A stretch of DNA of 23,278 nucleotides. It comes from a virus (Duplodnaviria > Heunggongvirae > Uroviricota > Caudoviricetes). The DNA lies in IMG/VR virus record IMGVR_UViG_2547132127_000004. One strand, given 5' to 3'. Positions within the stretch are counted from its first letter, which is position 1. Every line of letters begins with the position of its first letter. Position numbers: made by a program. Shown here piece after piece: positions 6,001 to 12,000 of this stretch.

Positions 6001-9000
6001 TTATTAAAACGATAGTGGCTCAGGCTCTCATTTTTCAGCGTTCCCCAGAAGCTTTCCATCGGAGCGTTGTCGTAACAGTTACCTTTACGCGACATTGATG
6101 TTTTCAGACCAAACTGCTCCTGTATGACCCGGTAATCGTATGCGCAGTACTGTGAACCTCGATCAGAGTGGTGGATTAGCCCGGCAGGTGGGCGCTGGCT
6201 CCTGAGCGCCATAAACAGGGCTTTACCTGTCAGCTCTTTTGTCATGCGCTCTCCCATGGCGTAGCCGACAATTTCACACGTATAAACATCTTTGATGCCA
6301 GCGAGGTACAACCATCCCTCCTGTGTGGCAACATACGTCAGGTCCGCCACCCAGACCTGATTTGGTGCTGTAGGAGCGAACGTCTGGTTCAGCAGATTTG
6401 GCGCAACTGGCAGATTGTGGTTCGGGTTCGTAGTCGCTCTGAACTTGCGTTTCTGCTTACAGCGTAGCCTCAGCTCCTTACGAAGACATGCCAGTCGGTC
6501 ACGACCAACGATGATGCCATTCTCTGCCAGCTCCGTCTGGAGCCGCCGGGTTCCATATGTTTCGCGAGTGCGGATATGTGCCACCTTAATCTCCAGTTTT
6601 AGCCGCTCATCACTTTGTTTTCTGTCTGAGGGTTCATGCTGTACCCAGTTGTAATAACCGCTCCTGGATACACCAAATACCTGACACATCGCTTCAATGG
6701 GAAATTGTTGTCGCCATTGTTCGATTAACGCGTATTTTTCAGCGACTCCTGTGCAAAATACGCTGTTGCTTTTTTTAATATATCGCGCTCAAGGCGAGCT
6801 TCATTTAACGCCTTACGCAGTTGCAGAATTTCAGATTCCAGTTCAGCCACCGTGCGGGAACCAGGAGTACCGAGCCCTTTTCTGGCGGCGGTAACCCATT
6901 GTCCTAAAGTGCCTTCAGGAAGGGATAATCGGGAAGCGCCTTCACTGATCGAAAGTTGATTTTCAAGAACCGTTCTGACAGCTTCGGCTTTGAACTCTTT
7001 AGAGTAACGTTGGGTTTTTCTGCTCATTATTAGCTCCTTCTGATGCCATTCTATTTCAGGAAGGAGTGTCCGTTAAACTCAGGCTACCTCAGTCAGCGCT
7101 GGAACGACGAGAAGCCAGAAACCATTCAACCACAATCCAGACCATCATCCGCAATCACCGTATCGAAAACTGGCTATGTGTTTTTCGACAGGTGAACCAT
7201 GAAATCAAAAATCAAATCGCTACTGGTCGCTGGTTATAACCACGGCTGGTTAAGTATTTCGTTTGTCGATTTCTGGTTTAAAAATCTCAATCTGAGGGAA
7301 TCATGAGGCCAAGTGAACTTAGCGACCTGCTTTGGGCGCAGGTTGACAGGGTGGCTCCGCACCTGTTGCCAAACGGCAAGATAGAGGGGCATGAGTGGGT
7401 TGCCGGTAACGTCAACGGTGACAAGGGAAACAGCCTTAAGGTCAACCTTATCGGCAAGAAAAAATGGGCTGATTTCGCTGAGGGAGACGGCGGTGACATG
7501 CTTGATTTGTGGATGGCATGTCGTGGAATTAACCTGCATCAGGCTATGCAGGAAGCGAAAGCATTTCTCGGTATCAAGGATGACGATCACCATTTCGATG
7601 CCAGACGTGAGAAGAAATTCTCCAGACCTGATCGTAAGAAAATCGCCCGCTACGTTACCAGAACAGAATCCCATCTTGAGTACCTGCAATCGCGTGGCAT
7701 ATCGCCAGAAGTCGTAAAGCGCTACGAGGTTGTCAGCGGCAAGGTGTGGAATGGAGAACGAGAACTGGATGCTCTGGTGCTTCCGTACAAACGCGATGGT
7801 GAGTTGTTGCAGGTCAAGCGAATCAGCACTGAGCGCCCGGACGGGAAGAAAGTCATTATGGCAGAAGGTGATTGCGAACCTTGCCTGTTCGGATGGCAGG
7901 CTCTGGACGCTGGCGTGAGGGCGGTTGTGCTTTGCGAAGGCGAAATTGATTGTATGAGCTATGCGCAATACGGCATCTCGGCGTTATCCGTGCCGTTTGG
8001 TGGCGGGAAAGGCGCTAAGCAACAGTGGATTGAGTTTGAGTATCACAACCTCGACAGGTTTGAGGAAATATTCATCTCGATGGACGTTGATGATGTTGGT
8101 CGTGAAGCCGCAAGGGAAATCGTAAGCCGACTCGGTGAACATCGTTGCCGTCTTGTTACTCTGCCGTACAAAGACATCAACGAATGCCTGATGAACGGTG
8201 TTACCGAGGATGAAATCTGGCAGTACATCGGCACGGCATCCTACTTCGATCCTGAAGAACTCTACAGTGCGCGAGAGTTTTACCAGGACACTATCAACGC
8301 TTTCTACGGCAAGCAGCAGTATCTGTTTAATCCACCGTGGGAATCTCTGGCAGATAAATTCCAGTTCCGTGAGGCAGAGTTGACGCTGGTCAATGGTGTG
8401 AACGGTCACGGAAAGGCATGCCCACTGAATGAGCCTATTCTTTTAGCTGATGGGACATGGACTACTCACGGGAATGTAAAAATTGGCGATCAGGTGGCGT
8501 CAGTAGACGGCAATCCGTCAACTGTCACTGGGATATTCCCGCAGGGTGTTAGAGATGTTTACCGAGTCACATTTGAAGATGGTCGTTATGTTGATTGCGC
8601 AGGCGATCACCTATGGGAGGTCACTAGTCGTGGATTCACGAAAGGCGAGAAACGCCGCGTGATAGATACCTTCGGGTTGAAGCGGTTGAGTGAAACGAAG
8701 AGGCACAAAAATGGCGTTAGGATTCCTGAAATAACTGGTGACTTTGGCGACCACTCAGAGCCATTAGCATGGGTTATCGGCTCCCTTCTCGGGGATGGTA
8801 GTCTTAGCAATGGGAGCGTGAAGTTTTCAAACGTCGAGCCATACATGATCGAGCGTATGAAGGCTGAACTGCCTGATTACAACTTCTCTGGAGATGGTAA
8901 GGACTGGCTGATATCAACGGCGCGTGGTCAGGTAAATCCACTCATGGAGACCCTGCGAGGTTATGGACTAATGGGGTGCACAGCAAAAAACAAATTCATC

Positions 9001-12000
9001 CCTCGTGTGTTTTTTTCCGCAAATAAATCAACGCGTATAGGCATGCTGTGTGGTCTGCTTGAAACGGATGGGTATGTCGAGAAGGATGGAACGCTTGTTT
9101 TTTCCTCAGCAAGTGAAGAACTGCGCAATGGGGTTGTTCAACTGGTTAACTCACTCGGCGGGTCATGCCGGACGCGAGTTAAAACTGGCGTGACATACAC
9201 ATACAAGGACGATAAGCAGCATGGGATGGATTCATACGAGGCAAGAATCAGACTGACAAGAGAAATCAGGGAGGCCATCCGTTCACCACGACTCAATGGC
9301 AGATTAACTGCGCATCGATTCGAGGGCTGTGGGGTATTCGTCAGGAATGTTGAAAAAATCGGCAATGCAGAATGCTTGTGTATTATGGTCGATCACCCTC
9401 GCCACCTGTATGTAACCAGGGGATATGTGGCGACGCATAACACCGAGGTTGTCGGGCATATGGCACTTGAGGCAATGCGTCAGGGTGTGAAGACGTGCAT
9501 CGCGTCACTTGAGCTGAAGCCTGGTATTCTCCTTAAGCGACTTACCCGTCAGGCAACGTGCTGCAAGATGCCGCCAGTGCTGGAAATTGACTCTGCATTT
9601 AAATTTTATGACGAAAGACTTTGGGTGTTTGGCCTGACTGGAACGGCGAAAGCCGACAGGCTGATCGAAATATTCGACTACGCTCGCCGCCGATACGGGA
9701 TCCAGTTATTCATCATCGACAGCCTGATGAAATGTGGCATAGGCGACGATGACTATAACGGGCAGAAGGCGTTTGTTGACTCGATTTGCGACTTCAAAAA
9801 CAAAACAAACTCCCACGTCATTCTCGTTACTCACTCGCGAAAAGGAGACAGCGAAGAAAAACCAACCGGGAAAATGGACGTAAAAGGCTCTGGAGCGATA
9901 ACAGGCCTGACAGACAACCTTTTCATCATCTGGCGTAACAAGGCTCGCGAGAGAGCGTTACAGAGAGTTCAGAGTGGTGAAAAGATGTCAGAGAAGGACG
10001 AACAGCTACTGGCATCTCCGGCATCTGTTTTGATGCTTGAAAAACAACGTAACGGCGAAGGTTGGGAAGGTGGTGTCCCGTTGTTCCTTGACGAGCAATC
10101 GCACCAGTTCCTGCAACTTGAATCAGGATCGCCATATAGCTACATCGCCAATATGCCGAAATCGGAATATGACGAGGCGTGGCGACAGGAAAACGTGACG
10201 GAGTATTAAATGACCATCTACATCACTGAGCTAATAGCAGGCCTGCTGGTAATCGCAGGCCTTTTTATTTGGGGGAGAGGGAAGTGAACGATAGCTACCG
10301 ACAGTTTGAAAACTGGTGGTCAAAAGACAAAAGCCAGTTCACAGGAGACGATGAATTAAAAGAGTTTGCCTGGGTGATATGGCAGGCATCGCGAGCAGCT
10401 ATTGAACTGGATATCGACTGGCCCGAATCGAATGACGACTTTTGGAAAGATGGTGAAGAAGGTGCTTATGCGATGGGGCATGAGGATGGGAAGGACAAAA
10501 CGGTAATTGCAGTAATGAAAGCTATCAGAGCCGCTGGAATTAAAGAGAAGAATTTTCGATGAAGCAAACAATCTTCCTCCGAACTAAGCAACAACAGCAA
10601 GCCGCAATAAATGCCATCCTCTCAACTCCTCTCGATAAAGACAAGCCAGTCACCATCCGCATTACTGACTACAAGCGAAATCTTGACCAGAACGCAAAAT
10701 TTCACGCGATGCTGGCGGATATCGCTCGTCAGGTTCAATGGTGCGGCAAATGGTTAAAACCAGAACAATGGAAGGTTTTGTTGATCAGCGGTCATGCAGT
10801 GGCAACAAAACAGGAAGCTGATGTTTTGCCCGGCCTTGAAGGAGAATGCGTCAACATTCGCGAAAGCAGCGCGCAGATGAGCGTGAAGCGCATGGCAAGT
10901 CTGATCGAGTACACAACAGCCTGGGCTATTGGTCAGGGTGTCAGATTTACCGACAGGAGGTATGAATGAGGCGACATCGACGAAGTTTCACCGACATCAT
11001 CTGCGAAAACTGCAAATACCTTCCAACGAAACGCTCCAGAAATAAACGCAAGCCAATCCCAAAAGAATCTGACGTAAAAACCTTCAACTACACGGCTCAC
11101 CTGTGGGATATCCGGTGGCTAAGACATCGTGCGAGGAAATGACTATTTATCCGGTGCGCCGCCAGAATGACGGCGCGGTGTGGTTAAACGAAGCGGATCT
11201 GGAGTTTTTTTCCAGTAGCGCGGGCGAATTTTTTTAGTGTGGCAAATGATGGGCCGCTGATACCTGATGCGAGATTACTTTCCATTCTGGTGATCGCGGT
11301 CGCTTTTGTTCCCATTCGCTCGGCAACTTCAGCCTGAGTTAAGCCAGCTTCTTTGCGTGCTGCCAGCATTTCATCAAGCAGTGCGAATTCGTCAGCGATA
11401 GCGTCGTATTCTGCTTTAAAAGCCGGGTCTTCCATCCATTTGGCTGCCATTTCGTCGTGTGTCATGGTGGGGAGAGTGCGTTTACCAGTCATGCTTAACC
11501 TCCTTCATTCTGGTTTCAGCTTTCTTGCGTTCGGCTGGCGGTGTTTTCTGCGCTTTCTTTACAAAACTATGCAGCATGATGATGCGTTTCCCTGTCAGAG
11601 TGCAGTAAAAAACACGCGCGATCCCATCGTTGCCTTTAATTCTGAGTTCGAAAAGCCCGTCACCAAAGGCGCTGGTGTGAGGTTCTCCGAGATTGCTGCC
11701 GTATACCTTCATGCGTTCAACAAGATGCTGGTATCTGGCACGCATACTCAATGGAAGCTGATCGACCTCCAGTCGGACCTCTTCACTGTAGTATTCGATA
11801 GTGTAGTTCATACAGCAAAACATAACAAAATCGTTATATCTGCACAATATATTGATTCTGCAATTTCGGGACGTTACACTGTCTCTGCACCTTATAAAGC
11901 GGGGGCCGGGATTGGCGTCCTGAAATTCAATATAGAGCATAACCGCGCTCATGCGGTTTTTTCGTGTCATGAGCATTGCTACGCCCAAATTATGGTGGGG

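Follow-up and report, generated by a model that had tools for sequence, protein, structure and literature searches.

A probable class 3 intein with a LAGLIDADG endonuclease in the Walker A motif of a lambdoid-phage primase-helicase

Introduction

Why should the Walker A motif of a phage replication protein be parted, between its lysine and its threonine, by 342 additional residues? The question is raised by a primase-helicase gene on a 23,278-nucleotide stretch of Caudoviricetes DNA (IMG/VR virus record IMGVR_UViG_2547132127_000004), which was analysed over its whole length and is called the window here. A first-pass annotation of this DNA had proposed that nucleotides 8416-9441 encode an intein, a self-splicing protein insert, with a homing-endonuclease domain and the hallmarks of class 3. 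Our analysis supports this proposal: with a probability of roughly 85%, nucleotides 8416-9441 are a full-length, probably still mobile class 3 intein that separates Lys371 from Thr714 in the Walker A motif of its host, a T7 gp4-type primase-helicase from a lambdoid phage.

Class 3 inteins lack Ser, Thr or Cys at position 1 and carry Trp at B:12, Cys at F:4 and Thr at G:5 (the WCT signature); their +1 residue is usually, but not absolutely, Ser or Thr, and most of them reside in the P-loops of helicases or ATPases (Tori et al. 2010). They rely on a single internal catalytic Cys. The first-pass annotation was right in tracing the first description of the class to the DnaB intein of a mycobacteriophage, namely Bethlehem. 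A paper by Tori and Perler from 2011 is reportedly a further source, next to the 2010 study, for the positions that define the class.

Results

The boundaries of the insert follow from a comparison with alleles that lack it. The precursor reads ...LVNGVNGHGK-ACPLNEPILLADG...YVATHN-TEVVGHM, and intein-free alleles with 98% nucleotide-identical exteins read GVNGHGK/TEVVGHM (the slash marks the insertion point) and lack exactly these 1026 bp; across the junction, the intein-free sequence is GVNGHGKTEVVGHM. The gene is 1881 bp long in the intein-free alleles versus 2907 bp here (2907 - 1026). Because the intein-free alleles read GHGK/TEVV, the insert comprises exactly 342 codons, with Ala first, Asn last and the Walker A Thr immediately after, and because the insertion is clean between the Lys and the Thr of the motif, residue 1 of the intein is Ala. 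The intein extends from Ala1 to Asn342 (protein residues 372-713; 8416..9441, plus strand), as defined by its absence from the intein-free alleles, by its HINT plus LAGLIDADG fold and by its class 3 relatives. The coordinates first proposed for the insert were correct to the base, and two expectations attached to them, that excision would recreate a canonical GVNGHGKT with Ala as residue 1 and that intein-free homologues would reveal a clean insertion in GKT, were borne out by these alleles.

The in-frame insertion occurred at a conserved site of the host gene, for which homologues without the insert exist. The target site, GTGAACGGTCACGGAAAAACG/GAGGTTGTCGGGCATAT, is identical in six intein-free alleles from E. 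coli and Shigella and in the 87%-identical allele of Salmonella phage SEN22. At the junction itself, the Thr codon is ACC in intein-plus versus ACG in intein-free alleles, and the Lys codon is AAG versus AAA, phiKp_30 excepted. GC content gave no separation of the intein from its host gene.

The precursor gene (7303..10209, plus strand) encodes 968 amino acids and a stop codon, and was identified as a T7 gp4-like primase-helicase with an intein from the list of open reading frames (ORFs), Pfam and PHROG; its product is an exact match to Shigella flexneri ABF04780.1. The N-extein (residues 1-371; 7303..8415, plus strand) contains the primase part, with a Toprim domain, and the start of the helicase domain, and its last seven residues, GVNGHGK (residues 365-371; 8395-8415, plus strand), form the opening half of the Walker A motif. 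The C-extein (residues 714-968; 9442..10209, plus strand) begins with the Walker A Thr and supplies the remainder of the SF4 helicase/ATPase domain as well as the stop codon. In the 968-residue protein, Pfam Toprim_2 matches residues 209-296 (nucleotides 7927-8190), AAA_25 matches only as a fragment near the C-terminus, and PHROG assigns the protein to DNA primase and primase/helicase families. Removal of the insert restores GVNGHGKT and a contiguous helicase ATPase domain: when the exteins were joined in silico, the AAA_25 match became contiguous at 27.9 bits (cut-off 27), versus a 21.7-bit fragment in the precursor, and a DnaB_C match was gained. The spliced sequence matched T7 gp4 chains with E = 1.7e-22, placing GhGKT on GmGKS across the P-loop, and Twinkle with E = 2.6e-13. 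With a Toprim domain followed by a RecA-type hexameric helicase domain carrying a Walker A GK[ST], as in T7 gp4-like (SF4) proteins, the host protein is a lambdoid-phage primase-helicase of the T7 gp4 type. Since the insert parts the Lys from the Thr, the P-loop of the precursor should be unable to bind ATP unless the insert is removed.

Profile searches and structure prediction both identified the insert as an intein with a homing endonuclease. The profile check suggested by the first-pass annotation succeeded in one half: on the insert, Pfam LAGLIDADG_3 scored 35.1 bits, well above its cut-off of 22.5, but Hom_end_hint, which matched insert residues 8-53 with 25.5 bits, stayed below its cut-off of 32.1. 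All NCBIfam matches were to models of intein-containing proteins. An AlphaFold2 model of the intein, built on a 67-sequence alignment, had a mean predicted local distance difference test score (pLDDT) of 94.4 and a predicted template modelling score (pTM) of 0.92. When this model was compared with the PDB using Foldseek, the top match was PI-SceI (E = 9e-17, TMq 0.75), followed by the intein-endonucleases TliVMA/PhoVMA, PI-PfuI and PI-PkoII and, further down, by mini-inteins including the class 3 structures 6RIY, 6RIX and 6BS8 (TMt 0.72-0.80); I-DmoI and I-OnuI were matched as well. To judge from the model, the insert is a full-length intein in which a HINT splicing domain is interrupted by a LAGLIDADG endonuclease.

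The endonuclease domain spans 8731..9321 (plus strand; limits approximate), as judged from Pfam LAGLIDADG_3, the alignment with PI-SceI and the fold. It contains the two LAGLIDADG motifs that had been noticed at the outset, LAWVIGSLLGDGSL with Asp127 (residues 488-501; 8764-8805, plus strand) and IGMLCGLLETDGYV with Asp218 (residues 579-592; 9037-9078, plus strand). Their GDG (Asp127) and DG (Asp218) cores align with the corresponding motifs of PI-SceI, and both Asp residues are near-invariant among the relatives in the 67-sequence alignment (A2, described below). This is the arrangement of a two-motif LAGLIDADG endonuclease, in which each motif contributes a catalytic acidic residue to an alpha-beta-beta-alpha-beta-beta-alpha pseudo-dimer.

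The HINT fold with its blocks A, B, F and G was recovered in the AlphaFold2 model and its Foldseek matches and, from the sequence, in phmmer alignments that run end to end with 6RIX and 6BS8. Block A, ACPLNEPILLADG (8416..8454, plus strand), begins with the non-nucleophilic Ala1, followed by a lineage-specific Cys2. Block B, GRYVDCAGDHLWEV (8581..8622, plus strand), contains His65 (B:10, protein His436) and Trp67 (B:12, protein Trp438), and block F, ECLCIMVDHPRHLYV (9370..9414, plus strand), contains Cys322 (F:4, protein Cys693, nucleotides 9379-9381), the predicted class 3 nucleophile. The C-terminal end of the intein together with the first C-extein codon (9424..9444, plus strand) was placed with the help of the intein-free alleles and of alignments with relatives; here, the sequence ...ATHN/T shows the terminal His-Asn followed by a Cys/Ser/Thr nucleophile that is expected of an intein. 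The residue numbers first given for the signature, Trp438 within DHLW, Cys693 at the second of the two Cys in CLCIMV and Thr711 just before His-Asn, all proved accurate, with Thr714 as the +1 residue.

In the closest solved relatives by sequence, the class 3 DnaB inteins MchDnaB1 (6RIX) and Msm DnaBi1 (6BS8), both characterised by structure and biochemistry, each of these positions has its counterpart. Residue 1 is non-nucleophilic, Ala1 being fixed by the intein-free alleles and Ala also being the majority residue among relatives; His65-Leu-Trp67 falls on HqW of 6RIX and 6BS8, which places Trp B:12 two residues past His B:10; Cys322 aligns with the block F Cys of both structures (motif vrCveVDnPaHLY); Thr340-His341-Asn342 falls on their terminal THN; and the +1 residue, Thr714, is the Walker A Thr. 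The proposed WCT signature aligns position by position with His65/Trp67/Cys124/Thr143 of MchDnaB1 and with the corresponding residues of Msm DnaBi1, whose published numbering is His65/Trp67/Cys118. When a HINT-only query of 145 residues was used in phmmer, MchDnaB1 was matched end to end with E = 6e-12 and Msm DnaBi1 with E = 4e-8. With the exception of gp41-1, in its native form (6QAZ, E = 1.7e-5) and as a WCT-engineered variant (6RIZ), no intein from outside class 3 scored better than E = 0.09 in this search.

Relatives were collected by a profile search, which returned 114 proteins, mostly PhoH-like, DnaB-like and AAA_24 ATPases; a word-indexed search before it had given 6 matches and had missed the full-length protein. 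Alignment A2 holds the query and 66 of these 114 proteins, 67 sequences in all. Position -1 is Lys in 53 of them and residue 1 is Ala in 52; His B:10 is present in 67/67, Trp B:12 in 66/67, Cys F:4 in 65/65 non-gap rows and Thr G:5 in 66/66, and the +1 residue is Thr in 58 and Ser in 8 (66/66 for the two together). HMMER was also run exhaustively over 1.84 billion cluster representatives and yielded 2751 proteins at E <= 1e-30. Among the best 148 of these, 147 aligned at both ends; His, Trp and Cys are found in 147/147 of them, THN in 145, and Thr or Ser at +1 in all, and in these nearest representatives the intein is mostly preceded by a P-loop of the type ...xGK and mostly starts with Ala. 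By sequence, the intein is nested in a very large family of P-loop inteins bearing the class 3 signature, and its membership of the monophyletic class 3 clade is strongly suggested, since its nearest solved sequences are class 3 and the signature is present in 147/147 of its nearest representatives.

We surveyed the distribution of the gene by megablast against 5426 complete E. coli genomes. The gene was found in 296/5426, in 79 of which it is full length, that is, intein-plus. Nearly all other matches fall into two pieces spanning 1881 bp, which amounts to roughly 200 genomes with an intein-free allele. Intein-plus copies are present in the phages Min27, 24B, Stx2a_F403, Stx2a_F451 and phiXuzhou21 and in Klebsiella phage phiKp_30, and O157:H7 Stx2a (Shiga toxin 2a) prophages are among the carriers; the phages mEp043, Sf101, APC_JM3.2 and Salmonella SEN22 have the intein-free form. 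The sequenced Stx2a phages 24B, Min27, F451 and Xuzhou21 and phage phiKp_30 carry the same allele with all catalytic residues, the phiKp_30 copy keeping every key residue despite 18 synonymous and 9 non-synonymous codon differences. The protein cluster to which the gene product belongs has 1494 members, from E. coli, Shigella flexneri/boydii and Salmonella enterica; neither the source names of its listed members nor the annotation under our matches names an intein.

The presence of the intein is polymorphic at this one site, and intein-plus alleles occur on at least three extein haplotypes that are shared with intein-free alleles, a spread that, as far as sequences can tell, fits homing. We also looked for single-nucleotide polymorphisms in the exteins that would mark a co-conversion tract, and beyond the junction codons found no site that separates intein-plus from intein-free alleles. 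This lack of fixed linked differences is neutral and neither proves nor excludes homing.

A second, related intein of class 3 type was found in a 797-residue DnaB-type helicase from a different group of Stx2a phages, for example Stx2_PV12-16 (gene at 1898-4291 and intein at 2501-3517 of locus L013). It is 50% identical to the primase-helicase intein over its whole length, is inserted at the same GK/T point, and shares with it Ala1, HLW (here within NHLW), an identical ECLCIMV block F and the ending THN/TE. It differs in its host, which belongs to a different helicase family (DnaB_N plus DnaB_C), and in having Met at position 2. Among the complete E. coli genomes, 24 carry it, versus 79 for the primase-helicase intein. 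Records of 49 'Stx2a-converting' phages match the intein protein, and the four that were sampled are of this 50% type; under the DnaB-borne match, the annotation of the PGAP pipeline gives DnaB N-terminal and C-terminal domain proteins. Our literature search found no report of a DnaB-borne intein of Stx2a phages.

The copy in the window lies in a Shigella prophage that has been truncated by IS600. Two full IS600 copies (IS3 family; orfA 100 residues, orfB 272 residues), at 5828-7095 and 20114-21381, are in direct orientation and 99.8% identical, and a 186-nucleotide IS600 end lies in inverted orientation at 22881-23066. The part homologous to Stx2a phage F451 begins precisely where an IS600 copy ends (7092); of the O-like helix-turn-helix (HTH) gene upstream of the primase-helicase, about 100 nucleotides of its end remain, and the opposite end of this IS600 adjoins, and is overlapped by, the ORF of a phage integrase (4889-5965). 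It seems that the whole immunity and early region between int and P was deleted, leaving a cryptic remnant.

Downstream of the primase-helicase gene lies ninB, and on the minus strand at 11184-11830 a toxin-antitoxin-like pair, formed by ORF 11482-12156, whose C-terminal part is a Gp49/DUF891 (HigB/RelE-like) domain, and then an HTH_3 protein (11184-11492). A second phage replication module, from another prophage, occupies 12259-16095 and comprises a Rha regulator fragment and a 304-residue protein, a DnaC/IstB-like loader (13820-14707) and a DnaB-type helicase without an intein (14704-16095). The late region of this second prophage (16601-19731) contains the antiterminator Q (16601-17017), lysozyme and Rz, together with four tRNAs, Met-CAT, Arg-TCT, Thr-TGT and Gly-TCC (17217-17527). 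The first part of the window, 1-4790, is chromosomal and encodes a FAD-oxidase C-terminal domain protein, an MFS sugar transporter and two electron-transfer-flavoprotein subunits; just before the integrase, a 121-residue ORF on the minus strand (4425-4790) gives a partial G3P_antiterm match (positions 1-108 of 173).

Discussion

The class 3 splicing mechanism of the insert is inferred by analogy with the published one. In this scheme, the precursor would be an inactive ATPase until Cys322 (protein Cys693) attacks the Lys371-Ala372 peptide bond to form a branched intermediate through a block F thioester. The N-extein would then be transferred to the side chain of Thr714, cyclisation of Asn342 would release the intein, and an O-N acyl shift would yield a 626-residue primase-helicase. 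The freed intein could act as a homing endonuclease, cutting the intein-free site GGTCACGGAAAAACG/GAGGTTGTC in co-resident phages and then copying itself into it; the predicted substrate is the intein-free sequence GTGAACGGTCACGGAAAAACGGAGGTTGTCGGGCATAT. Activity is plausible from the comparison of alleles, because the copies in Stx2a phages differ by only 0-4 residues, phiKp_30 retains the key residues, the target site is invariant, and the intein occurs on several haplotypes.

Several points weigh against a spliced and mobile class 3 intein at this locus. The function of the intein of phage 24B was stated not to have been determined (Smith et al. 2012, PMC3430580). The haplotype mosaic could equally well have arisen without homing, by recombination among lambdoid phages. 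The copy in the window may rarely or never be expressed, though the gene is intact; its expression is doubtful because the IS600 deletion took the upstream immunity and O-like region. Finally, Cys is seldom found at intein position 2 in this family, and its presence makes a splicing start at Cys373 formally conceivable.

The rival that survives best, although we consider it distinctly unlikely, holds that the intein is a splicing-dead relic, comparable to the pseudo-intein of Arthrobacter Arth_1007, and that a defective prophage, or host DnaB and DnaG standing in for the phage enzyme, allows it to persist. It gains from the location of this copy in an IS600-scarred prophage remnant without immunity and O-like region, from the Arthrobacter case, in which a class-3-like pseudogene intein is on record, and from one database relative (P0003) that lacks His B:10 and Cys F:4. 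The present gene, however, keeps every catalytic and endonuclease residue and an open frame of 968 codons; only 0-4 amino-acid differences separate the intein from the copies in sequenced Stx2a phages, and most of its codon differences from phiKp_30 are synonymous (18 versus 9).

Still less can be said for a standard class 1 intein that starts at Cys373, with Ala372 belonging to the N-extein and GHGKA-TEVV as the spliced product, which we regard as highly improbable. The Cys directly after the Ala (ACPLN...), a block A alignment to solved inteins that is loose by one residue, and a few WCT-bearing relatives that begin with Cys or Ser all speak for it. Against this, the 98%-identical intein-free alleles require an insert of exactly 342 codons including that for Ala; a loop reading GKAT would disrupt the Walker A pattern GK[ST], which aligns with GKS of T7 gp4; and the relatives read GK/AQ, GK/AM or GK/AI, without a Cys at position 2, the close DnaB-borne relative in Stx2a phages beginning with Ala-Met. 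On the grounds of the 342-codon insert including Ala, the loss of GK[ST] and the Ala-Met, Ala-Gln or Ala-Ile start of the closest relatives, we rejected this start. An ordinary inserted domain or fused free-standing LAGLIDADG endonuclease, retained in the mature protein without splicing, is hardly credible and was likewise rejected: the databases do call it 'toprim domain-containing protein' or 'replication protein P' and do not speak of an intein, but the endonuclease is enclosed by HINT blocks A, B, F and G, the His-Asn end is followed by Thr, the fold matches that of intein-endonucleases, the split between Lys and Thr of the P-loop is incompatible with ATP binding unless the insert is removed, and homologues without it are common.

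If the insert is a class 3 intein, Cys2 may have a role of its own. This residue (nucleotides 8419-8421) lies beside the scissile bond at a position occupied by Gln in 52/67 rows of A2, and it is kept in all close alleles examined, phiKp_30 included. In the class 3 DnaB intein of M. smegmatis, H2O2 reversibly stops splicing through a disulfide between the catalytic Cys and a second, non-conserved Cys, and the MchDnaB1 intein is also inhibited by H2O2. By analogy, Cys2 might be a disulfide partner of the catalytic Cys322, and the intein would then be, beyond a selfish passenger, a redox-gated switch on the replication of Stx phages. The support for redox-gated splicing is circumstantial, and we think such a switch unlikely; were it real, oxidative stress would, in Stx2a phages with this allele, hold the primase-helicase as an inactive precursor and so delay genome amplification and, with it, Shiga-toxin gene dosage. 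Any dependence of splicing on conditions would have a bearing on the replication of Shiga-toxin phages, and since lambdoid phages are genetically tractable, E. coli would be a suitable host for studying the class 3 mechanism, homing at co-infection and conditional splicing.

According to Kelley et al. (2016), E. coli and Salmonella seem to have no inteins, a statement contradicted by the 79/5426 intein-plus E. coli genomes, by the 24 with the DnaB-borne relative, and by the copies in Salmonella and Shigella. Annotation pipelines flag none of these inteins.

Comparison with known inteins

The intein described here was already known. Smith et al. (2012, BMC Genomics 13:311, PMC3430580) placed an intein at residues 372-702 of the P protein of phage vB_EcoP-24B, recognising a HintN domain only, and mentioned an orthologue in a Shigella flexneri prophage with 955/968 identical residues, which is the protein of the window. 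The first-pass annotation, which knew of no intein of this class from an enterobacterial prophage, needs correcting in this respect: the intein had been reported, though without a class. The 24B gene and intein are the same as ours, with 98.9% nucleotide identity over the gene; the earlier report differs in giving no class, no mention of an endonuclease and no experiment, and in setting the C-terminus at 702, 11 residues short of 713. In the copies of F451, Min27 and Xuzhou21, 4 intein residues differ from those of the window copy, which, in addition, lies in a cryptic prophage. Our search of the literature for inteins in Stx2, Shigella or O157 phages or in primases found only Smith et al. (2012) linking an intein to these phages. 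What is added here, namely the exact boundaries, the class 3 assignment, the prevalence and the DnaB-borne sister intein, is incremental.

In the Min27 record (NC_010237.1 14575-17483, locus L006), the gene is 2909 rather than 2907 nucleotides long and is annotated as two coding sequences, 'P' (1-2583) and 'DNA primase' (2574-2909). This points to a frameshift near the 3' end, which probably accounts for the 87% identity quoted by Smith et al. (2012). InBase reportedly lists an 'EP-Min27 Primase' intein; a literature search for that name matched no paper, and nothing here relies on the entry.

For the two-domain architecture, the best structural match is PI-SceI of yeast VMA1 (TMq 0.75), with which both LAGLIDADG motifs align; PI-SceI differs in being a class 1 intein (Cys1, Cys+1), in its extra DNA-recognition region and in its eukaryotic host, and the identity is about 15%.

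For the splicing domain, the closest known systems are the class 3 P-loop inteins of DnaB, with Bethlehem as the prototype and Msm DnaBi1 (6BS8) and MchDnaB1 (6RIX) as solved examples. In common with them, the intein has a non-nucleophilic residue 1, His B:10, Trp B:12, Cys F:4, Thr-His-Asn and a Ser/Thr at +1, the block F/G motif C-x-x-V-D-x-P-x-H-L-Y...T-H-N, and a location in the P-loop of a hexameric replicative helicase. It differs in its host, a gp4-like primase-helicase of an enterobacterial lambdoid phage rather than the DnaB of actinobacteria or their phages; in its complete LAGLIDADG endonuclease, 6BS8 and 6RIX being mini-inteins; in a HINT identity of only about 30-35%; and in the Cys at position 2. 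The P-loop of a phage helicase is exactly where a class 3 intein is expected, and in that sense the find is of modest interest; the assignment extends a class that has been studied best in actinobacteria and their phages to the lambdoid phages of enterobacteria.

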